A stretch of 64,000 nt of DNA from an uncultured delta proteobacterium. Lineage in GTDB: Bacteria > Desulfobacterota > Binatia > Binatales > Binataceae. The position numbers and the translations under genes are program-made. Positions 3,423-20,426 of the stretch are shown here, one piece after another. The stretch covers positions 165,884 through 229,883 of the forward strand of contig CAVWKW010000001.1 of the NCBI GenBank assembly GCA_963755705.1. The letters are read 5' to 3'. How positions within the stretch are numbered: the first letter of the stretch is position 1; each line of letters opens with the position of its first letter. Under the pieces are notes generated by a model. It made no database searches. It saw nothing but the letters and a program-made list of their open reading frames with translations, and had not been told where the DNA came from.

Positions 3423-3502
3423 TTTTAAGTCCTCTCAACGTTAGGCCGGCATGATTCCACTGCACGAGATCGAACACTCAGAGGTCGCCGGACCAATGAC
3501 AT

Positions 3503-3533: not shown

Positions 3534-3627
3534 TCATCGGCCGCTCGCTGAGAGCGGCAATTTTGGTGGACTCCACCACCTTCGAGATCAACCTAGCAGA
3601 GCGATCGGTTCCCCCGCCAGCTTTGAT

Positions 3628-3963: not shown

Positions 3964-4084
3964 GGAGGACCCCGCCCTGCAGGAGTCATTGGCGTGCCGA
4001 CCAGCAGCAGCGTTTCAGCGGACTCCACCGCGTTCCCGCGCATCGTCATGCGCGGGCGAATTTGCCATTTCCCGGCGCGGCAGC

Positions 4085-5386
<1,302 letters not shown>

Positions 5387-5431
5387 TCATAAGACGAGGA
5401 GAATGCAAGCGTGCCTGTGCGAGAAAGATCT

Positions 5432-5460
5432 TGACTAGCGCGCTCGTCAGTTGTCTTATG
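5432..5460 (+). promoter_or_regulatory. Candidate sigma70-type promoter for riboswitch 1 (TTGACT-17-TCTTAT)
   Basis: TTGACT at 5432-5437. Weak -10. Positioned about 10 nt upstream of the riboswitch start. Confidence 0.3.
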
Positions 5461-5469
5461 GTACTCGCG

Positions 5470-5560
5470 AACGGTGATGGGGTTCCACCGACAACCGCTC
5501 CCGCTTGAGTGAGCTGATGACCCCTACTGATGTTGAACATGGTAGGGGCTTTTCTTTTGA
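5470..5560 (+). promoter_or_regulatory. Fluoride riboswitch (crcB RNA motif) with terminator-type expression platform
   Basis: GGTGATGGGGTTCCACCGACAACCGCTCCCGCTTGAGTGAGCTGATGACCCCTACTG aligns with the T. petrophila fluoride aptamer GGGCGAUGAGGCCCGCCCAAACUGCCCUGAAAAGGGCUGAUGGCCUCUACUG. Shared elements are GAUGG, AACCGC and CUGAUG..CCUAC. The 3' CCCCTAC is re-used in the hairpin CCCCTAC-N14-GTAGGGG followed by CTTTTCTTTT. Confidence 0.85.
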
Positions 5561-5685
5561 AAGGGCTCTGCCGCAAGAGACGGAGTCCTTTGTGACCGTT
5601 CATATTCCGAACATGACAGCCTTCTGAGAGAACGCTTCGGCGCGGGTGTGCCTGCGACTCAATCCGGTTGGGAGGGCAATGATCT

Positions 5686-6990
5686 ATGTTCACAGGCAGA
5701 GGTAAGCAGCTGACTCTCTTCGTGACCGAAACCGATCACTATCGCCATCAATCGTTGTACATGGCGATTATCGAGATGCTCCGACGCGAGGGATGCAGCG
5801 GCGCGACCGCCATCCGCGGGATCGCCGGGTTTGGGGCATCCAGCCTGATACATACTGCCGCAATTCTGAGGCTGTCATTGGATCAGCCGTTGATGATTAC
5901 TGTTGTGGACCGGGCCGAGCGAATCGAGCGAGTTCTGCAGCCGCTGCGCGAAATGGCCCCCGCCGCCTTGATCACCATTCTGGACGTGGAAGTTGTTCAA
6001 TCCGGGGCGCCCTTTAAGGAGGGTCTGCCCGACGTGAAGGTCGTCGAGGTAATGCGTCGCGAAGTTGCGACGGTGCATCCCGACAGTCCCGTTACAGAGG
6101 TCGTTGAGTTGCTTTTACAGAAGGATTTTACCGCCGTACCAGTCGTGGATGACGAGGGAAAGGTCGTCGGCATGGTCAGCGACAGCGATCTACTGACGCG
6201 CGGCGGCATGAACGTGACGATCAGTCTTAAGAAAGCGACCGATCTGGACTTCGTACGCGGGATTCATGAATCGCTGGAGAATCCGGCACGCAAAGTTTCA
6301 GAAGTCATGACACGCGAAGTAGTAACCGTCGATCCCGAAATGATTCTTGGCCGGGCCGCGCGAGTGATGGTGGAAAAGCACCTGAAGCGACTGCCGGTAG
6401 TCGACGACGCCGGCAAGCTCGTCGGAATCCTGGGCCGGCTCGATATTTTGAATACAATCGCCGCCGTTCATCTGCCCGAATGGCACCCGGAAGCCCGGAG
6501 CATCGGCGCACAAGCCACAGTTGGCGAGGTGATGACGCGTGAGGTTCCAGTCTTACACGAATCCGCAACCGTGGAAGAAATTTTTGAGCTGCTGGTCTCG
6601 TCCTCTCACAAACGGGTGGTCGTAGTCAACGCGAAAAGGCATGTGGTTGGAATCGTCGCTGATTCAGACCTGATATCGAAGGTGAGCCGTGAACATTGGC
6701 CGGGGCTGATGGAACTCCTGGTCTCGAAAGTCCCGATCGAAAGAATCAGCGGCGTCGCTCGAAAGCACGTCCAGCAACTGCGCGCGCGTTCAGCGAAAGA
6801 GCTGATGACGCGAGGCGTGATCACGGTCCGGGAGAAAATGCCCGTCGCCAGCGCTCTCGCGCTTTCAGCGGAAAAACGTGTAAAGCGCCTCCCCGTTGTG
6901 GACGCCGAAAATGAACTGGTCGGGATCGTCGGACGCACCGAAATGATGAGAGCGCTTCTGGCCGGCGGCGCGCCGACGAAAGGTTCGTAG
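5686..6990 (+). CDS. DUF190 (PII-like) N-terminal domain fused to four CBS domains; fluoride-riboswitch-associated protein
   Basis: N-terminal ~100 aa (LTLFVTETDHYRHQSLYMAIIEMLRREGCSGATAIRGIAGFG) is a DUF190-type domain, which commonly neighbours crcB. It is followed by repeated CBS units (VxEVMTREVxTV...). Immediately upstream of crcB. Confidence 0.8.
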   Translation: MFTGRGKQLTLFVTETDHYRHQSLYMAIIEMLRREGCSGATAIRGIAGFGASSLIHTAAILRLSLDQPLMITVVDRAERIERVLQPLREMAPAALITILDVEVVQSGAPFKEGLPDVKVVEVMRREVATVHPDSPVTEVVELLLQKDFTAVPVVDDEGKVVGMVSDSDLLTRGGMNVTISLKKATDLDFVRGIHESLENPARKVSEVMTREVVTVDPEMILGRAARVMVEKHLKRLPVVDDAGKLVGILGRLDILNTIAAVHLPEWHPEARSIGAQATVGEVMTREVPVLHESATVEEIFELLVSSSHKRVVVVNAKRHVVGIVADSDLISKVSREHWPGLMELLVSKVPIERISGVARKHVQQLRARSAKELMTRGVITVREKMPVASALALSAEKRVKRLPVVDAENELVGIVGRTEMMRALLAGGAPTKGS

Positions 6991-6991
6991 C

Positions 6992-7366
6992 GTGGAGAGA
7001 GTCCTTCTGGTGGGGTCTGGCGGAGCTATCGGATCGGTCACTCGCTATCTGGTTGGTGGATGGTTCGCTGCTCGTTTCGGAAGCGCTTTTCCCTATGGAA
7101 CTTATGTAATCAACGGTACCGCGAGCTTCATCATCGGTTTTTTCCTGGCGCTCGCTCAGGTGCGCGCAGGGATCGGTCCCTACTGGCGATTGTTTGTGGC
7201 GACCGGTTTCGTCGGCGGTTATTCCACCTTTTCGACCTTCGAATACGAGTCAATGAGACTGCTCCAGGATGGCGAGATGCTATATGGGATGCTCTACCTG
7301 ATCGGAAGTATGGTGACGGGTCTCGGAGGTGCTCTCGCGGGCATTGCACTTGGCGGTTGGATTTGA
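6992..7366 (+). CDS. crcB: Fluoride ion channel CrcB/Fluc
   Basis: 124 aa, four TM helices. GSGGAIGSVTRYLV...YGTYVINGTASFIIGFF and GGYSTFSTF motifs are typical of CrcB. Directly downstream of the riboswitch-controlled gene. Confidence 0.85.
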   Translation: MERVLLVGSGGAIGSVTRYLVGGWFAARFGSAFPYGTYVINGTASFIIGFFLALAQVRAGIGPYWRLFVATGFVGGYSTFSTFEYESMRLLQDGEMLYGMLYLIGSMVTGLGGALAGIALGGWI

Positions 7367-7369
7367 GTT

Positions 7370-7398
7370 GACTGCAACGAATCCCTTGCTAGACTTCT
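7370..7398 (+). promoter_or_regulatory. Candidate promoter for riboswitch 2 (TTGACT-16-TAGACT)
   Basis: TTGACT at 7370-7375. TAGACT begins 16 nt downstream and lies about 7 nt before the riboswitch. Confidence 0.3.
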
Positions 7399-7407
7399 TC
7401 GAGCAGA

Positions 7408-7500
7408 GTTGGTGATGGGGTTCACCGCTACAACCGCCCTTTCCTGAGCTGGGCTGATGACCCCTACCGAGGTGTAAGCCGGTAGGGGTTGGCTTTCTCA
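7408..7500 (+). promoter_or_regulatory. Second fluoride riboswitch (crcB motif) with terminator-type expression platform
   Basis: GGTGATGGGGTTCACCGCTACAACCGCCCTTTCCTGAGCTGGGCTGATGACCCCTACC is a near-copy of the riboswitch-1 aptamer core. It is followed by the hairpin CCCCTACC-N12-GGTAGGGG and TTGGCTTTCTC. Confidence 0.85.
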
Positions 7501-7593
7501 GGTTCCCTACCTGGTCATTCGAGATCTCTCGCAAATCGGCGCCGCCTCGCGCCGAGGGACGAGACTTAACGCCGCATGGAACGAGCGTAGCGG

Positions 7594-8547
7594 ATGATGG
7601 CGCGTTCGATCGGGTTCAACCTGCTTCAAGTGCTGTTCGTTGTCGCACTGGCCCCGCTGGTCTCGGGCGTGTTGTCGCGGCTTAAGGAGATCGTTCAATC
7701 GCGGCGCGGTCCCAGCGTTCTTCAGCCCTATCGCGACCTACGAAAGCTGTTCAACAAAGACGAAGTTGTGTCCGAGTATGCTTCCTGGGTTTTTCGGGTG
7801 ACTCCTTACGTTGTTTTTGTTGCGCCGATCTTCGTAACCACGCTGATTCCGGTGCTCACCAGCTATCCGCTCTTTTTCGCTTTCATGGGCGACATGCTGG
7901 GAGCCGGTTTCGTGCTGGCGCTAGGCGGTTTCTTTGCCACGCTTGCGGCGGTTGATACTGCCAATCCCTACGGCCCGATGGGCGCCAGTCGAACCCGGAT
8001 GGTTGGCTTCCTGGCGGAACCCGTTTTCATGATAGTTTTTTTTACAGTCTCATTCGTGGCCGGCTCGACAATCCCTTACGTCGTTCAGCAGCACTGGGTG
8101 ACGCCGTTTTCGAATTTTCTTGCACCTTCGCACGTGCTGTTGGTGATCGCGTTCATCATGCTCATCATCGCCGAGGCTGGCCGGATTCCGGTGGACAATC
8201 CGACTGGCCATTTCGAACTCGCGATGATCGACGAGTCGAAGAGTCTCGAGTACTCGGGCACCGGTATGGCGCTGATGAAATGGGGCGGGCAGATGAAGCT
8301 GCTGGTGCTGATGTGCATCCTGCTCAACGTATTGGTAACGCCATGGGGACTTGCCATCGGCCAGAACACTGCCGAGGTCCTGCTGGCGGCACCGCTGGTG
8401 CTCTTCAAAGTAGCGATTTTTATACTGGTGGTGGTAGTGATCGAATCCTCACTCTCGAAATTGCGGCTCTTTCGCGTCAGTGAATTTCTGGGCGCGGCCT
8501 TCGTAACCTCGGTGGTAGCAATGATCACCGGGCTACTGAGCTTTTAG
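7594..8547 (+). CDS. Ehr/Hyf-type complex membrane subunit, NuoH/HycD-like (EhrB-like)
   Basis: 317 aa polytopic. LQPYRDLRKLFNKDEV corresponds to the NuoH QPxADxxKLxxKE signature. Confidence 0.8.
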   Translation: MMARSIGFNLLQVLFVVALAPLVSGVLSRLKEIVQSRRGPSVLQPYRDLRKLFNKDEVVSEYASWVFRVTPYVVFVAPIFVTTLIPVLTSYPLFFAFMGDMLGAGFVLALGGFFATLAAVDTANPYGPMGASRTRMVGFLAEPVFMIVFFTVSFVAGSTIPYVVQQHWVTPFSNFLAPSHVLLVIAFIMLIIAEAGRIPVDNPTGHFELAMIDESKSLEYSGTGMALMKWGGQMKLLVLMCILLNVLVTPWGLAIGQNTAEVLLAAPLVLFKVAIFILVVVVIESSLSKLRLFRVSEFLGAAFVTSVVAMITGLLSF

Positions 8548-8559
8548 CCAAAGACTCCA

Positions 8560-9240
8560 ATGGCGAATTACTACGCATTCATGAGCTCGCTGAATGGCCT
8601 GGCCGCGGGACTGTTCCTGATGAGTTCGTTCGGGCTCGCGGCGACGCGCCAGATGCAGGGATGCCAGCGATTCTATATTACTCAGTCTTTGTGCCTGGTG
8701 GTGTCGGCGCTGTTGCTCGGCCTCGGTTTGCACGCACCCGACCTGTTGGCGGTCGCCGCGCTTGACGTGGTGGTAAAGCCGATTGTAATTCCACGGCTGC
8801 TCCGACGCATGGTGCCTGAAGCCATTTTCAGAAGACGCGAGATCGATCAGGTATTGAATATTCCCAGCTCGCTGCTGATCGCGCTCGCGTTGACGCTGCT
8901 GGCCTATTTTCTTAGTGGATATCTGCCACCGGCGGCCGGCAGTTTGGCAAGAATCAACCTTCCTATTGGCCTCGCGGGGATATTCATAGGCATTTACACG
9001 CTCACGGTTCGGCGCGAGGCGGTGCCTCAACTGATTGGCATCTTTGGCATCGAGAATGGCGCCTTGCTTTGTGGCTTCGCGATTGCGCCGACGCTGCCAC
9101 TGGTAATCGAGATGGTCTTCCCGTTCGATATGCTGATCATCGCGCTGGTTATCGGAATCCTCACTCGAATGACGCATGAACGGGTCGGAACGACCGAGGT
9201 GGGTGGCTTCAGGACTCTGCGAGAAGGTTCCGGGAAATGA
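8560..9240 (+). CDS. Ehr/Hyf-type small membrane subunit, HyfE-like (EhrC-like)
   Basis: 226-aa hydrophobic protein in the position and of the size of HyfE. No catalytic motifs expected. Confidence 0.6.
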   Translation: MANYYAFMSSLNGLAAGLFLMSSFGLAATRQMQGCQRFYITQSLCLVVSALLLGLGLHAPDLLAVAALDVVVKPIVIPRLLRRMVPEAIFRRREIDQVLNIPSSLLIALALTLLAYFLSGYLPPAAGSLARINLPIGLAGIFIGIYTLTVRREAVPQLIGIFGIENGALLCGFAIAPTLPLVIEMVFPFDMLIIALVIGILTRMTHERVGTTEVGGFRTLREGSGK

Positions 9241-10685
9241 TCCTCTTCGTGATTCTCGCGCTTCCGCTGATTGCCGCGTCAATATCGGCAATCCCGCTCG
9301 GTCGCCGCGTCGCTCCTGCGGTTACGCTTGCGTCGTGTGTGGCAGTACTGGAGTTGACGGTCGCGGCAGCGCTGCGCGTCGTCGCGGGAGAATCGGTGGT
9401 TGCGATACGTAACTGGATCGCCATTGACGGACTAAGCACGTTGGTATTGTTGCTGGTCGCGACGGTGGGAAGTACCGCGGCGCTCTTTTCGTGGGGCTAC
9501 ATCGCTCGGGAAAAGAATTCACGCCATCTGCGCCGCTATTATGCCAATTACAATTTGTTTGTGTTCGCGATGCTCTCGGTGCCCATGCTTATCGAGCCGA
9601 ACCTGGTGTGGACCGGAGTGGAGTTGACCACGATTCTTTCCGTTTACCTGGTCGCATTCGAAAATACTGGCGAAGCTCTGGAAGCCGCGTGGAAGTACTC
9701 AGTGCTCACGATTATGGGGGGAGCGATAGCTCTGCTCGGATTTCTGGCCCTGTATGCCGCGACGCGGGGCAGGTACCCGGGAGTGCCTTACACCTGGCAT
9801 ACGCTGATCGTGCTTGCGCCCAAAGTTTCGCCGGGTGTGCTTGAGACCGCGTTCGTCTTGATTCTCGTTGGGTTTGGCGCCAAGGCCGGTTTGGTTCCCC
9901 TGCACACGTGGCTGCCCGACGCGCACAGCCAGGCGCCGAGCCCGATATGCGCGCTGCTCTCAGGGATCAAGACCACGGTGATTTTATACGTGATATTGCG
10001 TCTCATTCCGGTGTTGAACGCTTCTGGAAAGATCGATATCGACGCTTGGGCGATGGTCGTAGGTTTGTTCTCGGTAGGTATTGCCGCATTTCTGATTATT
10101 CAGGTGACTGACTATAAGCGGCTGTTCGCATTCTCCACGGTCGAGCATATGGGAATCATTTTGGCCGCCGCTGGGATTGGTGGTGCCGCCGGTCATTATG
10201 GCGCCGTATATCAAATACTAAACCATGCGCTGACCAAATCGTTTTGTTTTTTTGCGGCCGGCGCGACCTTACTCGCAGTGGACACGCGGCAAATCGCGGA
10301 AGTGCGGGGATTGATACGGACCTCGCCCCCCGCGGGTGTGGCTCTGCTGTTCGGCGGAATCGCGATCGCCGGTGCACCACCGCTGGCGGTCTTTTTGAGT
10401 GAGTTCTCGATCCTGCGCTCAGGAATCGCTGCGCAACACTATCTTGCAACCGGTCTGCTCGCTGGATTCGTAATAGTTGCATTCTTCGGGATTCTTTATC
10501 ACCTCAACCGGATGGTTTTCGGGAAACCGCAATCGACCACCGAAAATATAGTACCGGTAAAACTGCCGGTGAGCTGTATCCTGACGCTAATTCTGGCCGC
10601 GATACCGATCATCATTCTCGGAGTCTATATGCCGCAGTCGCTGCATACTCTTCTTCGGATGGCTGCCGACGGCCTGACGAGGTGA
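9237..10685 (+). CDS. Ehr/Hyf-type antiporter-like subunit, NuoN/NuoM/HyfF-like (EhrD-like)
   Basis: 482 aa, about 14 TM. Mrp/NuoLMN-family pattern (WTGVELTTILSVYLVAFE..., GFGAKAGLVPLHTWLPDAHSQAP). Confidence 0.8.
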   Translation: MILFVILALPLIAASISAIPLGRRVAPAVTLASCVAVLELTVAAALRVVAGESVVAIRNWIAIDGLSTLVLLLVATVGSTAALFSWGYIAREKNSRHLRRYYANYNLFVFAMLSVPMLIEPNLVWTGVELTTILSVYLVAFENTGEALEAAWKYSVLTIMGGAIALLGFLALYAATRGRYPGVPYTWHTLIVLAPKVSPGVLETAFVLILVGFGAKAGLVPLHTWLPDAHSQAPSPICALLSGIKTTVILYVILRLIPVLNASGKIDIDAWAMVVGLFSVGIAAFLIIQVTDYKRLFAFSTVEHMGIILAAAGIGGAAGHYGAVYQILNHALTKSFCFFAAGATLLAVDTRQIAEVRGLIRTSPPAGVALLFGGIAIAGAPPLAVFLSEFSILRSGIAAQHYLATGLLAGFVIVAFFGILYHLNRMVFGKPQSTTENIVPVKLPVSCILTLILAAIPIIILGVYMPQSLHTLLRMAADGLTR

Positions 10686-10688
10686 TCG

Positions 10689-12278
10689 ATGCCCCCGGGA
10701 CTCCGACAAGTACTCGAAGAGGCTACCGCGCGATGGAACAGCAACGTTCGCCCGAGCCCCGAAGACGGCGCCGAATCGGCTTATCGGTTGGAGTGCGAGC
10801 CTCGTGCACTGCCGGAGATTTGCGACTGGCTATTCTCTGAGATGAATTACAGCTTCGGCGGCCTTGTCGTCGAGCAGCTAGCGCAATGGGAGCTGCGCTA
10901 TTTATTTTACGGGGGCTCGGACGCAGGCTGGCTGCACGTTCTTACTCATCTATCCCCTTCCGAAGATCGAGTACCCAGCATCAGCAGGCTGGTGCATGCC
11001 GCCGACTGGCACGAACGCGAGGTCGAGGATCTGTTCGGGCTGTTCTTCGAGGGGCACCCTCGCCTTGGTGACTTCGTGCTTCACGACGACGTTTGGCATG
11101 AGGGCATCGCTCCGATGCGTAAAAGCTTCGTTGCAAGCGAGCCCGTACTTCATCGTGAGCCTGACCTGACGTGGAAGCCCCGCCAGATCGTCGAGGAAGC
11201 GGGCGCTTTTTCGATGCCAGTAGGGCCCATCTATTCGGCGGCCACTGGGCCGGTGCACTTTCAGCTTGAAACCGTGGGTGAGGACGTGATTCGCGCGCAG
11301 CCGCGTCTCTTCTACGCCTATCGAGGGCTGGAAAAAATCGCGGAGGGACGTCAGGCCGAAGACGTGCTGCTGATCGCGGAGCGGATCAGCGGAACTTCGG
11401 CATTCGCTCATTCACTCGCGGTTTGTCAGTCCGTCGAGCACGTCAGCCAAATCGAAGTGCCGCCGCGAGGCCGCGCGCTGAGAATATTTGCCGCCGAGCT
11501 CGAACGCCTGCGGCATCATGCGTCGGTGATCGAAGGTATCTGTGAATCCACCGCCCTTGCTGTGGCTGCTGCGCAGGCCGCGATCCTCGAAGAAGACTTG
11601 CTCCGGATTTCCGGCGCTCTTACCGGCCATCGATATCTGTTCGGCCTGAGCACCTTCGGCGGCGTGACGATAGACCTTGATGGCGCAGCCTGCCGGGGAG
11701 CGGCGGCGCAGGTGCGAGATATAGGTGAAAAGCTCTCAACTCTGGAGCGGATGCTTAGCACCTCGAGCAGCTTCCTCGACCGCCTCGAGCAGGTTGGTGA
11801 TGTCTCGGCGAACGATGCCCGCGAGTTTGGGCTGGTCGGACCTATCGCTCGCGCCTCCGGCGTTTCGCGGGATCTGAGGAAGGCGCAGCCATATTCCGGC
11901 TATGAGGCGGTTGAGTTTGAAGTTCCACGTGAAACCGAGGGGGATGGCTTCGCGCGGCTGCGCCTGTTCTTTCGGGAGGCTACGCAATCAGTGCGGATTA
12001 TTTCGAAGATCGCCGAACGGATTCCAGATGGCCGGTTTCGCGCGCCGGAAGTCTGGTTGCGGCCCGGTGCCGCGCTGGGCTGGGTTGAAGCGCCACGCGG
12101 AGCCGCTCTGCATTGGCTTCGTTTGCGCGAGGACGGCGTGGTCGATCGATACCGAATTATCACGCCGTCGTTCGCTAACTGGCACGGGTTCAGGCTTGCG
12201 GCCGAAAGATTTGCGTTCCAGGACTTTCCAATAATCCTCGCGACGTTCGCGCTCTCAGTTCACGAGAACGATCGCTAG
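10689..12278 (+). CDS. Ehr-type large subunit (NuoC-NuoD/HycE-like fusion) lacking the [NiFe]-binding cysteines
   Basis: NuoD/HycE core (FSMPVGPIYSAATGPVHFQLETVGE). At the L1 motif position the sequence is ERISGTSAFAHS, i.e. RxCGxCxxxH with both Cys replaced by Ser. The C-terminus ...ALSVHENDR has no DPCxxCxxH motif and resembles the NuoD end. Confidence 0.8.
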   Translation: MPPGLRQVLEEATARWNSNVRPSPEDGAESAYRLECEPRALPEICDWLFSEMNYSFGGLVVEQLAQWELRYLFYGGSDAGWLHVLTHLSPSEDRVPSISRLVHAADWHEREVEDLFGLFFEGHPRLGDFVLHDDVWHEGIAPMRKSFVASEPVLHREPDLTWKPRQIVEEAGAFSMPVGPIYSAATGPVHFQLETVGEDVIRAQPRLFYAYRGLEKIAEGRQAEDVLLIAERISGTSAFAHSLAVCQSVEHVSQIEVPPRGRALRIFAAELERLRHHASVIEGICESTALAVAAAQAAILEEDLLRISGALTGHRYLFGLSTFGGVTIDLDGAACRGAAAQVRDIGEKLSTLERMLSTSSSFLDRLEQVGDVSANDAREFGLVGPIARASGVSRDLRKAQPYSGYEAVEFEVPRETEGDGFARLRLFFREATQSVRIISKIAERIPDGRFRAPEVWLRPGAALGWVEAPRGAALHWLRLREDGVVDRYRIITPSFANWHGFRLAAERFAFQDFPIILATFALSVHENDR

Positions 12279-12293
12279 ACGGCGGGAACAGCC

Positions 12294-13064
12294 ATGAGCC
12301 AATGGTTGATCAAGGGTCTCAGAACCGGCATCAAGAGCACGCCCTATCCGCGCGCCACGGAAACTGCGGCTGGAACGTCCCCAGGCCTGCCCGCCGCTAC
12401 CAGACTCGCCGCGGAGCAGGCGCAATCGGTGGTGGCTCGGTGTCCTACAGGTGCGCTTGAACTCGCGCCGGCTGGTGTGGACGTGAACGTGCGCCAGTGT
12501 ATCCACTGCATGCGGTGCGCGCGTGATACGGACAGACCGATGGATTGGGAACGCGGCTACGAGTGGGCGAGCGAAGTCTCGGCGGTTGATGACCGAACCC
12601 GGCACTTCGGTCCCGCGTTTGCTCGGTCGGTTCAGATTCTCGTGGTCGATACAGGCGACTGCGGTGCGTGCCTGAATGAAGTCCGACAGCTCAACAATCC
12701 CTACTACAACCTGCATCGCCTCGGATTCTTTCTCACTCCAACTCCGCGGCATGCGGACGTGTTGCTCGTAGTCGGAGCGCTGACCGAGCACATGCGCGCG
12801 CCCCTGCTCAAGGCTTACAACGCGATGCCTGGTCCAAAGCGCATCGTTGCCGTAGGCGCGTGCGCGTTATCGGGAGGAATTTTTGGCCGGAGCTTCATGT
12901 GCGCAGGCGGAGTAAGCGAACTGCTCCCGGTCGATGTCGAGGTGCCGGGTAATCCGCCGCCGCCACTAGCTATCCTGCACGGACTATTGGTTGCGGTGGG
13001 CCGTAAAACCTCTGCCAGTTTGCATCGCGCGGTAGGTGGCTCCACGGGGAAAGCGTCGGGATGA
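12294..13064 (+). CDS. Ehr-type small subunit (NuoB/HycG-like) with degenerate N-terminal ferredoxin-like region
   Basis: DTGDCGACLNE (CxxC..E), VGACALSGG (GxCxxxGG) and VPGNPPPP (where CPGCPP/VPGCPP is expected; Cys replaced by Asn). The N-terminus has a single CIHCMRC (CxxCxxC) plus CPTG remnant. Confidence 0.75.
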   Translation: MSQWLIKGLRTGIKSTPYPRATETAAGTSPGLPAATRLAAEQAQSVVARCPTGALELAPAGVDVNVRQCIHCMRCARDTDRPMDWERGYEWASEVSAVDDRTRHFGPAFARSVQILVVDTGDCGACLNEVRQLNNPYYNLHRLGFFLTPTPRHADVLLVVGALTEHMRAPLLKAYNAMPGPKRIVAVGACALSGGIFGRSFMCAGGVSELLPVDVEVPGNPPPPLAILHGLLVAVGRKTSASLHRAVGGSTGKASG

Positions 13065-15211
13065 CCGCGATGGGCTTGCTGCTGATCATCATCCTGGGGT
13101 TGTGCGTCGTCGGGATATTGTTGCCGCTGGCGGTTGATGAACGATTAACGCCGGCGATTGTGGGATGGCTCGGAGCGTGCGCGGCCGCCGTCTTACTCTG
13201 CTTCAGCGGAGCCTCTCTGTTTGCCGACGTGCCGTTTCACTCGACGTTGTGGAGCATTCCCTCGCTGGCGACGCTCACGCTCTCGCTCGATCGGCTGTCG
13301 GCGCTGTTTCTTTTTGTCTCGGGCTTGATCCTCCTTCCCGGATCGATTTTCGCCGCCGGCAATCTCCGTCGATACGCGGGCCGGTACAGTCTCGGGGCCT
13401 TTAGCGTTCCATATTTCGCGCTCTTCGCAACGCTGGTGTTGATTCCTTTATCGGCCGACGCGGTCTCCTTCCTGATGCTGTGGGAGTCGATGTCGATCCT
13501 GATCTATCTGCTGGTGAACTACGAAGACGAAGATGAGGAGCATATCCGGTCGGGATTCCTGATGCTCGCGGTGGGCGAGGCCGGCACGCTCCTCATCGCG
13601 CTCGCGTTCATCGTGCTCGCCAAAAATGGCTCGCTCGAGTTCGCCGCGATGAAGGATGGCTCAGGTACGTTGACCGAGTACACGCGATGGGCCGTTTTTC
13701 TGCTCGCGTTTTTTGGCTTCGGCGTGAAGGCCGGTCTCATCCCGGTGAACTTTTGGCTCCCGCAGGCTTATGCCGCTGCGCCGGACGCCTTCGTTCCGGT
13801 GCTGGCTGGAGCGACCTTGAACCTCGGAATTTACGGAATCGTCAGAGTCAATGGCGATCTGCTGCCGGTTGCGATGATCGGCCCCGGCATCGTCGCGCTG
13901 ATAATAGGCAGTGTTACCGCATTGCTCGGGATACTTTACGCGACAACCCAGAACGATCTTAAAACTATGCTCGCGCACAGCTCGATCGAGAACGCGGGCA
14001 TCATCACGGCGGCTCTTGGCGCGGGGTTCATCTTCGTGGCGTCGAATCGCCCATCGCTCGCAGCGATTGCGTTCGCGGCGGCCTTCTACCACACAGCGAA
14101 TCACTCGATCTATAAGGCCCTGCTGTTCTTCGCGACCGGTGCGGTTGATTCAAATACCGGGACGCGAAGCATCGACCGGCTCGGAGGCTTGATAAAGGCG
14201 ATGCCTCTCACCGCATTGTTCTTTCTGGTTGGCGCGCTGTCGATCGCGGCGCTGCCGCCGTTCAACGGATTCGTCAGCGAATGGCTCACGCTGCAGACGA
14301 TGCTGCAAAGCGCGGGGCTCGCTTCGACTGGCGTGAAAATCGTCTTTGCGCTTTGTGGCGCGATCCTCGCCCTGACCGCAGCGCTCGCGGTGACCTGCTT
14401 CGTGAAGGCGTTTGCGATGAGCTTCCTCGGAATGCCGCGCTCCGAATCTGCCGCGCAGAGTCGGCCTGCGCGAGCCTCTGCGACCCTTCCGATGGCGTTC
14501 CTCGCGGTGCTCTGCCTCGTGCTCGGAGTGACTCCGACCTATGTGATTCCGGTGCTCGACGGAGCGATAGCGCCGATCGCGGGGCAAGCTCGCGCTGCCG
14601 ACGCACTGGTGCCGCCATTCTTCGCCGGCAACGTTCATCACGGCGAGTTGCCCGCATCCTTCGTCGCGGACTTTCACGCGATCGGCGCGCAAGTTGGACA
14701 GAGTATCTTGCCGGGACGCGGGCTGGTCGTGATGCATCGCGGCGGCAAAGCCAATCCGATCGTGTTCGCAATGTCCACTTCGTACATGGCGGTGGTCTTA
14801 GCGTTGATGCTGCTGATGACTTACGTTGTTTTTCGAGTAGTGATTGCTCGAAGCCGCGCCATCGAGCGGCGCGCGGTCTGGGATGGAGGTATCCGGAGGT
14901 TGCTCCCGGAAATGACCTACACTGGTACGGGATTCTCGAATCCGGTGCGAGTTATCTTTGAGGCGATCTTCAGGCCTACCACCGTGGAGGACACCAGAGA
15001 GACGGTAGGAAAGCATTTCCGGGCGGCGATTCGCCGCACGCGCGGAGAAAATCACGTACTCGACCGTCTGATTCTCAATCCGATCGCGGATGCCGCCTTG
15101 TGGGTATCAAAAGGTTTCGCGCGGATGCATCACGGCATTCTCAACGCGTACGTTCTCTACGGGCTCGGCGCGCTAATCCTGGCGCTTTTGATCGCGAGAT
15201 TTTCCTCATGA
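13061..15211 (+). CDS. Ehr/Hyf-type antiporter-like subunit, NuoL/HyfB-like (EhrA-like)
   Basis: 716 aa, many TM. NuoL/MrpA-like motifs (GVKAGLIPVNFWLPQAYAAAPDAFVPVLAGATL). Start overlaps the small-subunit stop. Confidence 0.8.
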   Translation: MTAMGLLLIIILGLCVVGILLPLAVDERLTPAIVGWLGACAAAVLLCFSGASLFADVPFHSTLWSIPSLATLTLSLDRLSALFLFVSGLILLPGSIFAAGNLRRYAGRYSLGAFSVPYFALFATLVLIPLSADAVSFLMLWESMSILIYLLVNYEDEDEEHIRSGFLMLAVGEAGTLLIALAFIVLAKNGSLEFAAMKDGSGTLTEYTRWAVFLLAFFGFGVKAGLIPVNFWLPQAYAAAPDAFVPVLAGATLNLGIYGIVRVNGDLLPVAMIGPGIVALIIGSVTALLGILYATTQNDLKTMLAHSSIENAGIITAALGAGFIFVASNRPSLAAIAFAAAFYHTANHSIYKALLFFATGAVDSNTGTRSIDRLGGLIKAMPLTALFFLVGALSIAALPPFNGFVSEWLTLQTMLQSAGLASTGVKIVFALCGAILALTAALAVTCFVKAFAMSFLGMPRSESAAQSRPARASATLPMAFLAVLCLVLGVTPTYVIPVLDGAIAPIAGQARAADALVPPFFAGNVHHGELPASFVADFHAIGAQVGQSILPGRGLVVMHRGGKANPIVFAMSTSYMAVVLALMLLMTYVVFRVVIARSRAIERRAVWDGGIRRLLPEMTYTGTGFSNPVRVIFEAIFRPTTVEDTRETVGKHFRAAIRRTRGENHVLDRLILNPIADAALWVSKGFARMHHGILNAYVLYGLGALILALLIARFSS

Positions 15212-15384
15212 AGCTTGACCGGCGTTAAACGGAGTCTTAATTTTGAACTGTAGGCGGTGGAGTCCGCCGATATCTGCCATCCGGCCAATGACTCCTGCAA
15301 GCGGGTAGAGACCCGTGGCAGGAGTTTCCACTCCAGAAGCTGGGTCTCGAGACCGCTCCGACGATTGCTGATCGGAGGCCGCAA

Positions 15385-16212
15385 GTGCTCGAGCGCCTGA
15401 CAAAAAATTTCCGGGAACTACTCAAGAAGTTCGAGGGCGCGTCGTGCCCGCTGTGTTCTGTACTAAAATGGCGGGAACAACAGCGGCTTGAGCGGCTGCG
15501 CGCAAGCGGCGTTTCGACGCGTGTCCTGTGCGGCCCGCATCTCGAAATGGCTCTGGCCGCGCTTGCTATCCGGACGGCAAGGGCGCGACTGACTCGTAGC
15601 GCGATCGAATCCGTCCTCGCCGGCCGTCCCGATTGCGAAGTGTGCTCATGGCTGTGCCAAATCGAGCTTCGGCTAGTGCGAGCGATTCGTCGTTTGGACG
15701 GCGGGATGCGCTTCCAGAAGGCTCTCGAATCGGCGCCGCTGTTCTGCCGCAAGCATGCGAGGGCGATCGGTGAACAAAATGCAGCGGTTAATTTTGCACA
15801 CGTCCAGAAGGCGAGGCTGCTTCGCTTGCGTAACGCGCTGGCTCAAGCAGAGTTGCGCAACAGCGCGGAGTTGGAATCGCTGATATCCAAGACGCTTGCG
15901 TACTTGGCTGCCCCAGTCGAGCAAGAGCCGGCATCAGAAGTCCTCGATTCCTCCGATAGCACGGAGAGTGACGCCGCGGAATTCGGGCGATGGGAGGATG
16001 CGCGTCAGCTCAAACATCTATCTGACCTCGAGAGCGAAGCGGCAAGCCTGCGCTATCGCAACGCAACGCTCGCCGAGGAAAACCGCAGACTCAAGCTCGC
16101 GCATGCTGCGGGCGAGGCTTTGAGGCGCGACCTCGAACACGATCGAGAGCAGTTTATTGCCGCGGCAAAAGCACAGGATCCAAATTCCGTAAAATCTTCA
16201 AACCGGAATTGA
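15385..16212 (+). CDS. Hypothetical protein with two C2CH zinc-ribbon-like modules and a C-terminal coiled-coil/acidic tail (GTG start)
   Basis: GGAGG RBS 6 nt before GTG at 15385. Modules CPLC-x24-LCGPH and CEVC-x33-FCRKH. C-terminal heptad-like ESEAASLRYRNATLAEENRRLKLAHAAGEALRRDLE. Confidence 0.55.
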   Translation: MLERLTKNFRELLKKFEGASCPLCSVLKWREQQRLERLRASGVSTRVLCGPHLEMALAALAIRTARARLTRSAIESVLAGRPDCEVCSWLCQIELRLVRAIRRLDGGMRFQKALESAPLFCRKHARAIGEQNAAVNFAHVQKARLLRLRNALAQAELRNSAELESLISKTLAYLAAPVEQEPASEVLDSSDSTESDAAEFGRWEDARQLKHLSDLESEAASLRYRNATLAEENRRLKLAHAAGEALRRDLEHDREQFIAAAKAQDPNSVKSSNRN

Positions 16213-16926
16213 ATGGAGCGAATCATCCCCATGCGAATCTGCATCATCTCTGACCTGCATGCGAACCTCGAGGCTCTTGCAGCGTTGCCGAGCGACTATG
16301 ACGAGTTATGGGTATTGGGCGACCTGGTCGATTATGGTCCCGATCCGGCTGAAACGATCGAATTCGTCCGATCTCACGCGTTGACCGTGATTCGAGGCAA
16401 CCATGACAACGCGGTCGGATTCGGAACGGACTGCGGATGCTCTCCCCGATTCACCGCGATGGCGGAGGCAACACGCAAGTACACTACCTCAGTCTTGAGT
16501 GCGAGCGACAAGCAGTTTCTCCGCGACCTCCCGACGTGCGCGTGCCGCCAACTAGACGGTCGAGTATTTTTTCTCTGCCACGCGACCCCGTCGGATCTTT
16601 TGTACGAATACCGTCCGCCAGACTCTCCTCTGTGGGCCCGAGATGAGGAGTCCAGTTCAGGAGCGGACGTTCTGCTGGCGGGCCATACGCACCTGCCGTT
16701 CGTACGCGTCTTCGGCGAGCGCGTCGTAGCTAATCCGGGAAGTCTCGGACAATCGAAAGTTGGAGGTGCGCGTGCCCGCTATGCGGTCTGGCAGGATGAC
16801 CATATCGAGCTAAAGGACTACGAATATCCCGTCAATAAAACTATACACAAAATTCTGACACTGCCATTGCCCGAGGAAGTAAAGCACGATCTCGTCTGTG
16901 TGCTTCGCACGGGGACGGCGCCGTGA
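16213..16926 (+). CDS. Calcineurin-like metallophosphoesterase (YfcE/MJ0936/Vps29-fold family)
   Basis: Motifs ISDLHAN, VLGDLVDYGPDP, RGNHDN and GHTH, in canonical order. Confidence 0.8.
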   Translation: MERIIPMRICIISDLHANLEALAALPSDYDELWVLGDLVDYGPDPAETIEFVRSHALTVIRGNHDNAVGFGTDCGCSPRFTAMAEATRKYTTSVLSASDKQFLRDLPTCACRQLDGRVFFLCHATPSDLLYEYRPPDSPLWARDEESSSGADVLLAGHTHLPFVRVFGERVVANPGSLGQSKVGGARARYAVWQDDHIELKDYEYPVNKTIHKILTLPLPEEVKHDLVCVLRTGTAP

Positions 16927-17918
16927 GTACTAATAGTCATCGAGACGCCGCGCCGGCGCCGATTGCGATCACGGCGGACTCCGCAAAACTCACTGCTCTG
17001 GGACGTCACCTGCGATCTCTGCACGACGGGGACGGCGCGGTGATTGAGGCAATCGGCATCGGTGCTCCAGCGGTTCCGATCCTGCGGGCACTTCTGTCTG
17101 AGCGAGACTTCACGGGGATTTTCGAACCGCGGATGCGGGCCGTTCAGGCGCTGGCCGCGCTCAGAGCCACGAGCGAATTGAAAGAGTACGTTCGGGGGTG
17201 GCAATCGGCCTCAGACCCCGTCGAGCGATTCGGAGACGAGGCAGTGCTGGGGACGGCCGCCAGATTTTTGGGCGCGACTAAAGACGAAGACGCTTATCAG
17301 ATCTTGATCGCGGTGGCCCGAAAGCATCCGGTGCCTGGCGTCATCGAAGCATTGGGAAGCTGTGGCCGCAAGGAATCGATTCCGATCGTAATCAAAGCCC
17401 TTGCCGACGACGTCAGCCGTAGCGCCGCGGAACAGGCGTTAAGAATCCTCGGAGAGGTCGGCGCACCTGCACTCATCGAAGCCGCCCTGCGACCCGTAGC
17501 GAACTTTTGGGGCAGTGAAATTCCATCCAGTGTGCGGCGGCGCCGCAGCGCACTGATGCTGCTGTTCGAATTTGGCGTCACCCGCGACATTTGGGACCGC
17601 GTCCGCGGGTTGGCAGCGGATTCAGACGACGAGATCGCGGTCCACGCGTGCGCGATTGGCCTGACCGCCGGGACCTATCCCGACCAGCGCGATTGCGCGC
17701 GCCGAATGGTGGCACTGCTGCGTCAGGTGGCGTGGCCGCTTCATCGTGAAGTCGAGGACTGTCTGATAGTTCATTTCGCAATCGCGCGCGAGTTCGTCGA
17801 ACAGGCGATCAAAAGCCCGATGGACCTGATCGCGAATGACTTCGCGCGTGCCCGCTTCAAACGATCCCTGCGCCGGATCGCGGCGCGAGCATCAACCAGC
17901 CAGGCGCCCAGGAGTTGA
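16923..17918 (+). CDS. HEAT/PBS-lyase-type alpha-solenoid repeat protein
   Basis: Repeated ~30-aa units (AVxALGxIGxPAVPxLxxLLxD...) typical of HEAT-like repeats. Start overlaps the upstream stop. Confidence 0.7.
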   Translation: MSTNSHRDAAPAPIAITADSAKLTALGRHLRSLHDGDGAVIEAIGIGAPAVPILRALLSERDFTGIFEPRMRAVQALAALRATSELKEYVRGWQSASDPVERFGDEAVLGTAARFLGATKDEDAYQILIAVARKHPVPGVIEALGSCGRKESIPIVIKALADDVSRSAAEQALRILGEVGAPALIEAALRPVANFWGSEIPSSVRRRRSALMLLFEFGVTRDIWDRVRGLAADSDDEIAVHACAIGLTAGTYPDQRDCARRMVALLRQVAWPLHREVEDCLIVHFAIAREFVEQAIKSPMDLIANDFARARFKRSLRRIAARASTSQAPRS

Positions 17919-20380
17919 CCTCGATGCCGCAAGCAGCGTCGCAGATCTCGGATATCGCGAGCGATGCTGTCCGCCGCTATGACGATCTCAAGCTTGAGAT
18001 CGCGGCGATCGGACAGACCGCGATGCTCACCTGCACCAAAGATAAAGATGAGGAAGGTGAGCGAGCGTTCCAGTCGGTGCTGGCGCGGCTCGCTGAAGAT
18101 CACTTCAATCTCGCCGTTATCGGTCCCTTCAGTCGCGGTAAGAGCAGCCTGATGAACGCGATCCTCGGTTTTCAGGGCCTGCCCACCGGCCTCCTGCCGC
18201 ACACCTCCGTCATCACGACCGTCAGTTACGCGCCACACGAACGCGTTCTCGTTCGGTGCGCGGGATGGCCGCTTCCGCAGGAGGTTCGACTCGATCAACT
18301 CGCTGAGTATGTAACCGAACGGGGAAATCCCGGCAATCGGCGGGGCGTGGCGCTCGCGGAGATCCAGTTGCCGGCCGAGATCCTTCGCCACGGCCTCTAC
18401 TTTATCGATACTCCGGGCGTTGGTTCCGCGATCGTCGCCAACACAAAAACCACGGAACGGTTCCTTCCCGAGATCGATGCCGCGGTCTTCGTCTCCAGTT
18501 TCGATTTCGCCGTAAGCGAGGCGGATATCGAGTTCTTGCGTACCGTTACCGCGACGGTGGGCAAGGTATTTTTCGTCCTGAACAAACTCGACCTCACGTC
18601 GAAGTCCGAGGCCGAAGAAGTCATCAGATTCGTCCGCGACCGGCTCGACCGCGAACCGGGTATTGGGCGCTACTCTTTGTTCGCTGTGTCGGCCAAGCGC
18701 GCGCTCGAAGCAAAACTACATGGAGATTCGGGTGCGCTAGCCCAGTCCGGGCTGATTGAACTGGAGGATGCGCTGGCGGCATTCACGGCCTCGGACAAGA
18801 CGCACCAATTGTCCGTGCGCGTAATGGACCGCCTGGTCGCTCTGCTGCAACGCGAACGCGCACACGCCGGTTTTGCTGTAGCTTCAAAGCGATCTTCTTC
18901 GCAGGTCTCCGAAGCACTCGTCGGGTTCGATGAAAAGGCCGCCGTCCTCAAAGTGCGATGCGCGGCACTCGTAAACCGCCTTGGAGCGCTGGGCAATGAT
19001 GCGCTGCGCGCCTCTCAACGGCGCCTCGACTTCGCGTTCACCAGCCTCAAGCAAAGCGCGACTTTGAAATTCGCGCCGAACTTTCTTACCGGCAGGATAT
19101 TTTCCAGGCCGAATACGCTCGATACTTTCACGCGCAACGTGTCCGTGTTTTGTGCCGGCGCGCTCACGCGCGATTTACAAGTTTACGAGGCCGCACTGAA
19201 CGAGCATTTGGACCGGACAGCCGGTCCGGTCCGCACCGAACTTCTCGCTCTACCCTATGAAGTCTTCGACATCGCGATGAATGATGAGGGCAACACTCGC
19301 GAGCTTTCAAAGCTCTCTGCGGAAGAGCCCGAGGCAGCGCCGCCTTCTGTGGGGCTCGGGGGGATCGCGCGCATCGAGTGGAGACCGCGATTGCCGTGGT
19401 GGATATACGTGGCTCCCCGGCGCTGGTTTCCCGCGGCGATGAAGAGACAGTTTGCCGTCGCGCTCGGCGACCTGCTCGCCCAATACCGGTCCCGTGTCGA
19501 TGCGATGATCCGCGTCGTCCTGAAGGAATATGCAGAGAAACTGAATCGCGAAACTGAGAAGGCAATCGACGTTCAAGTGGCTCGCGTGAAAAAACTTCTC
19601 GCATCGGGAGGAATCGAAAAAAGTCGTCAGGTGTTCGAGACGCTTCTGGAACGAGCTAGAGAGCTAAGACGACGACTTGGTGACAACCCTGACCGTGGAT
19701 CACTGCCTGAGAATAGCGCCGCGGCTTCCGTCAGGGTGCGAGCGTGTCCTGTCTGCCGCACAGTTCTGCGCGCAGTCTTCGACTACTTAAGCAAGCTGCA
19801 ATATGAGTTGAGCATCGACGCTGACGCTCAACACCGACACGCGAAGAACGGCGGCTTTTGTTCGATGCACACGTGGATTTACGCCAGCATGACCTCGCCG
19901 GTTGCGATCGCGCGGGCCTATCCCGCGCTGCTAGACGCGCTTGCGGCTCGTCTGGAACGTGCTGCGGGAGAGGCGGTATCGATCGCGGAGCTGGCTCACG
20001 ACATTGACGATCTGGCGCCGTCGAAAGAGACTTGCGGAGCGTGCGCAATCGCCCGTGACGGAACGGAGCAGTCGGTCGCGGAGGTCCTTCGGCGCCTCGA
20101 TTCAGACGGGCGCAGCGAGGTTCCGGCCTTATGCCTGCCGCATTTGGCGATCGCACTTCACCTCGGATCGGAATTGAACGGCGCCCGTTTGCTGACCTCA
20201 CGATGCGCGAGCGCGCTGCTACGGGCTGCCGAAGACATGCGCCATCACGCGCTGAAGCACGACGCGATCCGGCGCGGCCTTATGTCGGGGGATGAGCGCG
20301 ATGCGCATCACACCGGCCTCAGAAAATTAACCGGCGACATGCTGCTGACACTCCCGCCTCGAGGGGACGACCGCCTCTAA
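17915..20380 (+). CDS. Dynamin-like GTPase (bacterial DLP family) with C-terminal double C2CH zinc modules
   Basis: G1 GPFSRGKSS, G3 DTPG and G4 NKLD in dynamin order, followed by a long helical region. The C-terminus carries CPVC-x35-FCSMH and CGAC-x28-LCLPH. Confidence 0.8.
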   Translation: MTSMPQAASQISDIASDAVRRYDDLKLEIAAIGQTAMLTCTKDKDEEGERAFQSVLARLAEDHFNLAVIGPFSRGKSSLMNAILGFQGLPTGLLPHTSVITTVSYAPHERVLVRCAGWPLPQEVRLDQLAEYVTERGNPGNRRGVALAEIQLPAEILRHGLYFIDTPGVGSAIVANTKTTERFLPEIDAAVFVSSFDFAVSEADIEFLRTVTATVGKVFFVLNKLDLTSKSEAEEVIRFVRDRLDREPGIGRYSLFAVSAKRALEAKLHGDSGALAQSGLIELEDALAAFTASDKTHQLSVRVMDRLVALLQRERAHAGFAVASKRSSSQVSEALVGFDEKAAVLKVRCAALVNRLGALGNDALRASQRRLDFAFTSLKQSATLKFAPNFLTGRIFSRPNTLDTFTRNVSVFCAGALTRDLQVYEAALNEHLDRTAGPVRTELLALPYEVFDIAMNDEGNTRELSKLSAEEPEAAPPSVGLGGIARIEWRPRLPWWIYVAPRRWFPAAMKRQFAVALGDLLAQYRSRVDAMIRVVLKEYAEKLNRETEKAIDVQVARVKKLLASGGIEKSRQVFETLLERARELRRRLGDNPDRGSLPENSAAASVRVRACPVCRTVLRAVFDYLSKLQYELSIDADAQHRHAKNGGFCSMHTWIYASMTSPVAIARAYPALLDALAARLERAAGEAVSIAELAHDIDDLAPSKETCGACAIARDGTEQSVAEVLRRLDSDGRSEVPALCLPHLAIALHLGSELNGARLLTSRCASALLRAAEDMRHHALKHDAIRRGLMSGDERDAHHTGLRKLTGDMLLTLPPRGDDRL

Positions 20381-20426
20381 GCGTCTGCAAGCCGCCTATG
20401 CAAATGCGGAACGAGATTACTCGCGA

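Follow-up and report, generated by a model that had tools for sequence, protein, structure and literature searches.

Complexes of the Ehr (energy-converting-hydrogenase-related) type have been placed between hydrogenases and complex I, with a function described as 'yet to be determined' (PMC6728331). In this report, we analyse an Ehr gene set in a stretch of 64,000 nucleotides from an uncultured delta proteobacterium of the Binataceae (assembly GCA_963755705.1, contig CAVWKW010000001.1, positions 165,884 to 229,883), the whole of which is hereafter called the window. Six co-directional and tightly packed genes on the + strand, ehrB-C-D-L-S-A, occupy positions 7594-15211 of the window and lie 3' of a fluoride riboswitch.

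The ehr operon and its riboswitch

Subunit families were assigned with Pfam and NCBIfam models. The operon opens with ehrB (7594..8547), which encodes a NuoH/HyfC-like membrane anchor of 317 amino acids (aa) (PF00146, E = 2.7e-32), followed by ehrC (8560..9240; 226 aa), a HyfE-like small membrane subunit whose C-terminal part is NuoK-like (NCBIfam 'hydrogenase 4 membrane subunit', E = 1.3e-16, below the curated cut-off, and a weak match to PF00420), and by ehrD (9237..10685; 482 aa), a HyfF/NuoM-like antiporter-type subunit (PF00361, E = 4.8e-47; the best NCBIfam match is HyfF at 319 bits, below cut-off). The large subunit gene ehrL (10689..12278; 529 aa) encodes a fusion of a NuoC-like and a NuoD/HycE-like part (PF00346, PF00329 and PF00374, the last being an N-terminal match to NiFeSe_Hases), and the small subunit gene ehrS (12294..13064; 256 aa) joins a HycF-like N-terminal domain to a HycG/NuoB-like domain (PF01058). 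The operon ends with ehrA (13061..15211; 716 aa), a HyfB/NuoL-like antiporter-type subunit (PF00361; HyfB at 514.8 bits, below cut-off; NuoL model over residues 8-708). Because every NCBIfam score lies under the curated cut-offs, no ehr gene is an ordinary Nuo or Hyf orthologue.

The initial annotation of this DNA had placed the same six subunits, in the order B-C-D-L-S-A, at these coordinates, and the Pfam and NCBIfam families agree with it, although some of its details change. The 'several' overlapping stop and start codons that it mentioned do exist, but in two gene pairs only, with 4 nt each (9237-9240 and 13061-13064), the remaining intergenic gaps measuring 3-15 nt. The small subunit that it called NuoB-like has a NuoB-like part but also an additional HycF-like N-terminal iron-sulfur domain. 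The subunits match the known Ehr set in the order B-C-D-L-S-A, the canonical order being A-B-C-D-L-S; the order of Ehr genes reflects naming usage and does not serve as a strict criterion. The absence of a NuoEFG-type electron-input module holds within what was scanned: NuoEFG, FdhF, HycB and hyp genes are all missing from the larger open reading frames (ORFs) of the window, and they may lie elsewhere in the genome. An antisense ORF of 252 aa (8533-9291, - strand) overlaps ehrC and exceeds it in length; a longest-ORF filter discarded ehrC, and gene callers could therefore mis-annotate it. A terminator-like site at 15170-15185 falls within the 3' end of ehrA, is at chance level and was hence not used.

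The aptamer upstream of the operon (crcB motif, RF01734; 'riboswitch 2' of the initial annotation) maps to 7402..7473 on the + strand, in the 5' untranslated region and 120 nt 5' of ehrB on the same strand. It is genuine by Rfam, with 51.5 bits (E = 2.3e-11) against a gathering score of 34 and with positions 1-64 of the 64-position model covered, and it reaches 72.1 and 63.1 bits under custom covariance models; the start given for it earlier, 7408, lies inside this interval. It is one of four RF01734 aptamers that Rfam covariance models find in the window.

The large subunit EhrL

A one-genome-per-species scan for the conserved peptides FAFQDFPI and GHRY[LF]FGL returned about 509 genomes with a relative of this system, and the locus-level comparisons below use the best 80 loci of these, which by record titles come from about a dozen phyla. 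The titles include Binataceae, Verrucomicrobiota, Planctomycetota, Nitrospirota, NC10, Beta- and Gammaproteobacteria, Acidobacteriota, Desulfobacterota, Gemmatimonadota, Actinomycetes, Dadabacteria and others. Only L060, titled 'Desulfobacterota bacterium M19', does not carry the label of a metagenome-assembled genome.

The closest solved relative of EhrL is E. coli HycE (7z0s_E, 208.6 bits), followed by NuoCD fusions (133-145 bits), MbhL (107 bits) and MbsL (87.5 bits). Alignment to HycE sets the Ni-Fe ligand positions of EhrL at S234, S237, S523 and E526, with the drvCGiCgfaH of HycE facing erisGtSafaH in EhrL. In place of the motifs RxCGxC and DPCxxC, EhrL thus has RISGTSAFAH and FALSVHENDR, the latter of which we take to be the counterpart of the C-terminal DPCxxCxDR motif of HycE. 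EhrL terminates where the C-terminus of mature HycE falls and has no C-terminal processing extension. Across 81 sequences of the EhrL family, the four positions are occupied by A/S/C/N, by T/S, by Ser (79/81) and by Glu (80/81), and an intact Ni-Fe Cys pair occurs in 0/81 members, for either of the two pairs. The quinone-site Tyr and His of complex I, identified from established knowledge of T. thermophilus Nqo4/Nqo6 and from PMC8165549, correspond in the family to Gly/Ala235 and Thr/Ala186. To judge from these residues, EhrL is neither a hydrogenase large subunit nor a NuoD. Ehr complexes are recognised by a large subunit without metal-binding cysteines (bioRxiv 10.1101/2019.12.18.881540), and EhrL, which lacks the metal-ligand Cys, therefore shows this recognition feature.

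When 1.84 billion cluster representatives were searched with HMMER, 629 hits fell below 1e-30, and the full-length sequences among the best 150 of these 629 sort into three classes by their ligand positions. The class of the window's EhrL reads x-x-S-E/D, ends in ...LSVAENDR and reaches as low as about 39% identity; a second class, likewise of Cys-less Ehr type, reads S-x-S-G, ends in ...SFNLSYAGNDL and has 30-38% identity to the window's EhrL; and the true Ni-Fe enzymes read C-C-C-C. The initial annotation had named clustering of the subunits with hydrogenases carrying intact metal ligands as the outcome that would speak against an Ehr assignment; such clustering is not seen, the Cys-containing relatives forming a class apart.

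These data bear directly on the way in which such genes have been labelled. The bare association of the fluoride riboswitch with 'formate hydrogen lyase' is already known: such genes have been listed as targets of the crcB motif since 2010 (PMC2864571), in line with the earlier statement that surveys link the riboswitch to hydrogenlyase-like genes, and a 2024 review, which counts formate hydrogen lyase among the commonest enzymes behind this riboswitch, takes it as a sign of a shift to fermentation (PMC11139923). A real formate hydrogenlyase (FHL) or H2-evolving hydrogenase that serves such a shift under fluoride would accord with this review, with the names given by the JGI to close homologues ('formate hydrogenlyase subunit 5' and similar) and with the position of E. 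coli FHL subunits as the closest solved relatives. It is nevertheless already contradicted by the sequences, which have neither Ni-Fe Cys pair in any of the 81 family members and no C-terminal processing extension; moreover, FdhF, HycB/HyfA and hyp genes are absent from the conserved neighbours of the 80 loci, as FdhF, HycB and hyp genes are from the scanned ORFs of the window. We consider this explanation extremely improbable. Since the riboswitch-associated 'formate hydrogen lyase' of the window's subfamily would be unable to make hydrogen, the 'shift to fermentation' reading does not fit it, and a 15-year-old label is corrected for this subfamily.

A near-obligate link between the riboswitch and one Ehr subfamily

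Covariance models were built from the window's aptamers and refined on locus hits, giving the refined model R2. In 70 loci, the sequence extends at least 4 kb upstream; of these, 67 have a same-strand fluoride aptamer 3.1-4.5 kb 5' of ehrL, that is, at the 5' end of the operon, and in the remaining three the aptamer lies 5.2-6.5 kb 5' of ehrL with extra genes between. R2 was trained on the same loci and is to that extent circular, so the weakest and the divergent hits were checked with the independent Rfam model: the seven weakest aptamer hits all pass (39.5-51.1 bits), and three divergent loci of the x-x-S-E/D class, L085 (39% identity), L088 (44%) and L090 (41%), all have the order B-C-D-L-S-A and an Rfam-supported fluoride riboswitch directly 5' of ehrB. 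The arrangement riboswitch-B-C-D-L-S-A is identical in every sufficiently long locus, and the six-gene set is invariant there. In five related loci, crcB belongs to the ehr transcription unit, where it follows the riboswitch and precedes ehrB.

The second Cys-less class served as the control. A class-2 (S-x-S-G) locus has the order A-B-C-D-L and no riboswitch. The control set was made up of 80 metagenome loci related to class 2 and three earlier class-2 loci (n = 83, 840 kb); about 70 of the 80 are Cys-less class 2, nine have N- and C-terminal ligand Cys like true Ni-Fe hydrogenases, and 31 have more than 6.5 kb of upstream sequence. In these 83 loci not a single fluoride aptamer was hit, even at E = 0.1, as against 171 hits in the 1.46 Mb of the window's clade, which argues that the riboswitch link is specific to the window's Ehr subfamily. 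The co-occurrence of riboswitch and Ehr genes, proposed as a check by the initial annotation, is thus positive in 67/70 related loci and in 0/83 controls, and for this reason the pairing is not attributable to chance. We conclude that the window's Ehr subfamily is almost always headed by a fluoride riboswitch, a near-obligate link, and the order B-C-D-L-S-A with a riboswitch, compared with the canonical A-B-C-D-L-S without one, marks it as a distinct Ehr subfamily.

Such a clade-specific and near-obligate link would suggest a fluoride-specific job rather than a generic pump, and it raises the thought that the complex handles fluoride directly. The residues at the old Ni-Fe positions, now hard oxygen ligands (Ser, Ser/Thr, Ser, Glu), or the open iron of the three-Cys cluster, might bind F- or a metal-fluoride (Mg-F), so that the complex senses fluoride or so that binding gates or drives the antiporter module to expel F- or HF. 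The high conservation of S523 (79/81) and E526 (80/81) would agree with this, the other Cys-less Ehr class having Gly at the last position. The proposal is purely speculative, though: the antiporter subunits keep Glu and Lys residues of the cation/proton type, anion-binding features were not identified, and dedicated exporters such as crcB are present alongside. We regard it as very improbable; if true, it would amount to a new energy-coupled mechanism of fluoride export or sensing and to the first assigned function for any Ehr complex.

The sequence between crcB and ehrB suggests how the riboswitch may act. A candidate sigma-70-like promoter at 7368..7395 on the + strand (TTGACT-16 nt-TAGACT with an extended-10 TG; consensus scan only) ends 7 nt 5' of the aptamer and is one site where 0.2 are expected in shuffles. 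A putative expression platform follows at 7460..7498 (+ strand), consisting of the hairpin ACCCCUACCG...CGGUAGGGGU (7460-7489) and then UGGCUUUCU. The hairpin pairs with the 3' strand of the aptamer, is present in the minimum-free-energy fold and was given -18.8 kcal/mol in the scan, and a hairpin that overlaps the aptamer 3' strand and is followed by a U-rich tail occurs in 48 of the 70 operon-leading riboswitches. We infer that 7460-7498 acts as a terminator-like OFF structure. By the usual logic of fluoride riboswitches, the hairpin would form when fluoride is absent and transcription would stop before the ehr genes; when fluoride is bound, the aptamer would retain its 3' strand, the hairpin would be prevented and all six ehr genes would be transcribed. 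The ehrBCDLSA genes would then constitute a fluoride-inducible operon.

The small subunit EhrS

The C-terminal two-thirds of EhrS align with HycG (7z0s_G, 110 bits) and MbhJ. In the 79 EhrS sequences from the window and its closest 80 loci, the proximal-cluster cysteines C123, C126 and C190 are invariant, and EhrS has a hydrogenase-type CxxC, not the tandem Cys of complex I cluster N2. The fourth proximal ligand position is Asn220 in the window (PGNPPPP versus PGCPP in HycG), and across the 79 sequences it is N in 45, Q in 11, H in 8, C in 6, D in 3 and S in 3. Within the N-terminal 110 residues, C50, C69 and C75 are invariant and C72 is found in 77/79. A profile of this domain matches E. coli HycF (7z0s_F) from residue 1 (E = 3e-6); compared with HycF, the first ferredoxin motif is reduced to its final Cys-Pro, and the second retains CxxCxxC without the final Cys-Pro. 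The 'medial' cluster of MbsN is bound by C71 together with C96, C99 and C102 (PMC8165549). The EhrS Cys set matches these medial ligands and the distal cluster is lost, and EhrS may therefore be described as a HycF-HycG fusion with a two-cluster wire. Two deeper branches of the clade, L085 and L088, have both full ferredoxin motifs and the fourth proximal Cys, that is, a three-cluster chain. In L090, the HycF-like and HycG-like halves lie in different frames (10599-11478), and the cause may be a frameshift in the assembly or a true separation of the two halves; as the N-terminal iron-sulfur domain is present in the other reading frame, this locus is no counter-example of domain loss.

There is a precedent for an open proximal cluster. 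Only three Cys bind the proximal [4Fe-4S] cluster of P. furiosus MBS, whose free iron has been proposed as the catalytic site (PMC8165549); EhrS of the window's subclade likewise has three invariant Cys and a variable fourth position. By analogy, the ehr complex could be a respiratory reductase in which the three-Cys cluster reduces a small substrate (e.g. sulfane sulfur) with coupled pumping, and fluoride control would then be a matter of metabolic re-routing. Against this analogy, deeper riboswitch-linked members keep the fourth Cys (PGCPP), and an open site is therefore no hallmark of the clade; MbsL and MbsJ (57.7 bits to EhrS) are among the weakest solved relatives; sulfur-metabolism genes are not conserved near the 80 loci; and many carriers belong, by record titles, to usually aerobic taxa. 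Such a reductase thus seems improbable.

The membrane arm

When EhrD is aligned to E. coli NuoM, E129 corresponds to the Glu of transmembrane helix (TM) 5, K216 to the TM7 Lys, K245 to the TM8 Lys and E389 to the TM12 Glu. E129 and K216 are each kept in 76/78 sequences and E389 in 78/78, and at position 245, 50 of the 78 have Glu and 26 have Lys. EhrA keeps E142, K223, H348, K352 and E407 in at least 74 of 76 sequences, EhrB has many acidic residues that are invariant across 74 homologues (e.g. E142, E194, E208, E214 and E219), and E165 and E184 are conserved in EhrC. The ion-translocating modules of complex I, MBH and Mrp bear the same residue signature, and by this measure the ehr membrane arm looks functional.

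A fluoride island

The ehr operon sits in a fluoride island. On the - strand, a fluoride riboswitch (3589-3521; Rfam, 39 bits) precedes an inorganic pyrophosphatase gene (3422-2889; Pfam), and an enolase gene (Pfam) lies at 5371-4085. On the + strand, another riboswitch (5464-5533; Rfam, 54.1 bits) leads an operon (5464..7366) that adjoins the ehr operon upstream and encodes a DUF190-CBS protein (5686-6990) and the fluoride channel CrcB (6992-7366), both by Pfam. Downstream of ehrA, a further + strand riboswitch (15244-15304) scores 35.1 bits with Rfam, just over the gathering score of 34, and 52.7 bits with R2, and it leads an operon (15244..21635) for a 275-aa protein without Pfam match, a metallophosphoesterase, a HEAT-repeat protein, a dynamin-like GTPase (821 aa) and an MFS transporter; this arrangement is syntenic in Binataceae-like loci. 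A fifth aptamer candidate at 3973-4041 (- strand) scores 34.9 bits with a clade-trained model and is not reported by Rfam even at E = 0.1; we leave it as an unconfirmed variant, which has counterparts in three related loci (L003, L008 and L015) and a 3' ORF of 111 aa without Pfam match (3963-3628). A sub-threshold Rfam match to the E. coli small RNA Esr41 at 3501-3577 (- strand; 29 bits versus 102) overlaps the stem-and-U7 terminator of the pyrophosphatase riboswitch and is better read as this terminator than as a small RNA gene.

Clustering of ORFs across the 80 loci identified enolase, crcB, DUF190 and MutS-domain-V proteins, dynamin-like GTPases, HEAT proteins, phosphoesterases and MFS transporters as recurrent neighbours. 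Dynamin-like GTPases recur in 28 related loci, sometimes directly 3' of the riboswitch, and in L038 and L088 such a gene lies between the riboswitch and ehrB. MutS domain V proteins (513 aa) occur near ehr in L073 (19338-20879) and in 14 other related loci, nine times directly 3' of a fluoride riboswitch; an unexplained 'mutS' association of the crcB motif, noted in 2010 (PMC2864571), matches these neighbours. In L088 (44% identity; 3260-17983), chorismate mutase, a dynamin-like GTPase, a universal stress protein and enolase surround the riboswitch-ehr operon, and a membrane H+-pyrophosphatase behind another riboswitch represents a second proton pump under fluoride control in that island.

The island is flanked in the window by mobility genes. 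An IS1-like transposase gene lies to its left (1155-2099); to its right are genes for a TrwB-type coupling protein (25061-26581), a TrwC relaxase (26585-29344) and a tyrosine integrase (30059-31237), the last of them directly adjacent to tRNA-Sec (31253-31344). Repeats of at least 13 nt of the tRNA-Sec region were not found elsewhere in the window, and repeats do not fix the island boundaries. An integrative mobilisable element may carry the island, and this would be consistent with how widely the island has spread among phyla.

Proposed function of the ehr complex

About a dozen phyla share the riboswitch-ehr pairing, and this suggests a role in surviving fluoride. HF entry, the resulting cytoplasmic acidification and the dependence of CrcB on membrane potential have been reviewed (PMC11139923). 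HF that diffuses in at low external pH, combined with F- exit through CrcB, would amount to net electrogenic import of protons, as with a protonophore; this HF/F- cycle would lower the cytoplasmic pH and dissipate the membrane potential on which CrcB relies. We propose that the ehr complex moves H+ outward, or exchanges a cation for H+, and would thereby offset both effects and sustain export by CrcB. The co-transcription of crcB with ehr in some genomes fits such a CrcB-supporting role. The energy source is the least certain step. Electrons probably pass from a soluble housekeeping donor, by way of the two iron-sulfur clusters, to an acceptor that would sit in the EhrL/EhrS/EhrB pocket, the alternative source being an existing ion gradient; electron transfer is favoured because the two cluster-binding motifs are strictly conserved. 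Thus formulated, ion translocation and homeostasis under fluoride is in our view the best explanation of the ehr complex, with a probability of roughly 0.5. That the complex has an ion-translocating role of some mode in fluoride stress, with secondary, Mrp-like transport included, is quite probable.

Several observations weigh against the proposal. A strict terminator scan did not call the hairpin at 7460-7489, whose U-tract is weak. All-against-all clustering of the ORFs of the 80 loci revealed no recurring redox partner, be it a ferredoxin, a dehydrogenase or another protein. The loss of the distal cluster in the window's subclade, together with the variable fourth proximal ligand, means that electron transfer may be vestigial. 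Finally, carriers have other proton pumps and might not need a dedicated one.

Some of these points would be expected of a secondary, Mrp-like cation/proton antiporter, in which the hydrogenase-derived arm is a structural or regulatory relic and existing gradients drive the exchange. No redox partner would then be required near the 80 loci, and the lost distal cluster and the variable fourth proximal ligand would be of no consequence; the catalytic metal and quinone ligands are gone and the antiporter residues are intact. In addition, Na+/H+ antiporters are the second commonest riboswitch-associated class after fluoride exporters (PMC11139923), and ehr would be their functional analogue. It is harder to reconcile a relic with the conservation of its arm: six of the seven iron-sulfur Cys of EhrS are invariant and the seventh is present in 77/79, across about a dozen phyla; the deeper branches retain the full three-cluster chain; and the whole peripheral arm of about 800 residues is strongly conserved, which would be costly. 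The Mrp subunits B, E, F and G are absent as well. We consider purely secondary antiport rather unlikely and retain ion translocation, probably driven by electron flow, as the preferred reading.

In the searchable literature, outside which the original Ehr papers in subscription journals lie, the riboswitch-linked genes are treated as formate hydrogenlyase, and nothing relevant there connects fluoride or the fluoride riboswitch with Ehr complexes or with systems that resemble hydrogenases or complex I. Nor does it state that the genes are of the Ehr type and lack a Ni-Fe site, that their gene order and ligand signature set them apart as a subfamily, that this subfamily has a near-obligate riboswitch link which the other Ehr class does not share, or that EhrS is a truncated HycF-HycG fusion. 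With the present analysis, an orphan Ehr family of complex I relatives gains a defined inducing condition, as predicted from its riboswitch, and a testable phenotype, and a membrane-energetics response to the protonophoric HF/F- cycle becomes a hypothesis to test.

Comparison with known systems

Among known systems, the canonical Ehr complexes (A-B-C-D-L-S) consist of the same families, namely a NuoH-like, a HyfE-like, two antiporter-like and a NuoCD-like subunit and a small subunit with ferredoxin-type motifs, and their large subunit likewise has no metal-binding Cys. They differ from the complex described here in gene order, in ligand residues (S-x-S-G versus x-x-S-E/D, at 30-38% identity) and in having no fluoride riboswitch (0/83 control loci, nine of them true-hydrogenase loci).

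The membrane and peripheral subunits each have counterparts in other complexes. Mrp (CPA3) shares MrpA/MrpD-type subunits with a TM5 Glu, a TM7 Lys and a charged residue in TM12, and in neither system is there an obvious substrate-level redox partner; in contrast to Mrp, ehr includes an anchor of the NuoH type and a large peripheral arm of iron-sulfur type, and it is without MrpB, E, F or G homologues. Complex I (NDH-1) has homologous NuoH, NuoB, NuoC, NuoD and NuoL/M/N modules, but ehr is without NuoEFG and without separate NuoA, NuoI and NuoJ; its small subunit carries CxxC instead of CC, and its quinone Tyr/His positions are replaced. MBS, a respiratory complex, is like ehr hydrogenase-derived and without a Ni-Fe site, and three Cys bind its proximal [4Fe-4S] cluster (PMC8165549), as may be the case in EhrS of the window's subclade. 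MBS differs in its low similarity (87.5 and 57.7 bits), in a separate two-cluster MbsN and in many more membrane subunits, and the three-Cys state holds for only part of the ehr clade. As for regulation, the neighbours crcB, enolase, pyrophosphatase and DUF190 are gene classes linked to fluoride-riboswitch regulons (PMC11139923).

The closest likeness among solved structures is to the E. coli FHL (Hyc) system, in which HycE, HycG and HycF are the nearest relatives of EhrL, of EhrS and of the N-terminal domain of EhrS, and HycE shares the NuoC-like N-terminal fusion with EhrL; similarly, HyfB, HyfF and HyfE of Hyf are the best NCBIfam matches of EhrA, EhrD and EhrC, all below the curated cut-offs. 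Unlike Hyc and Hyf, the ehr complex is without the Ni-Fe Cys, the C-terminal maturation peptide and the distal cluster, its HycF and HycG equivalents are fused in EhrS, and HycB/HyfA, FdhF, HyfD and hyp genes are missing from its locus. Together, as far as sequence comparison can tell, the ehr complex is a descendant of Hyc/Hyf-type (group 4) hydrogenases that has lost its Ni-Fe site.

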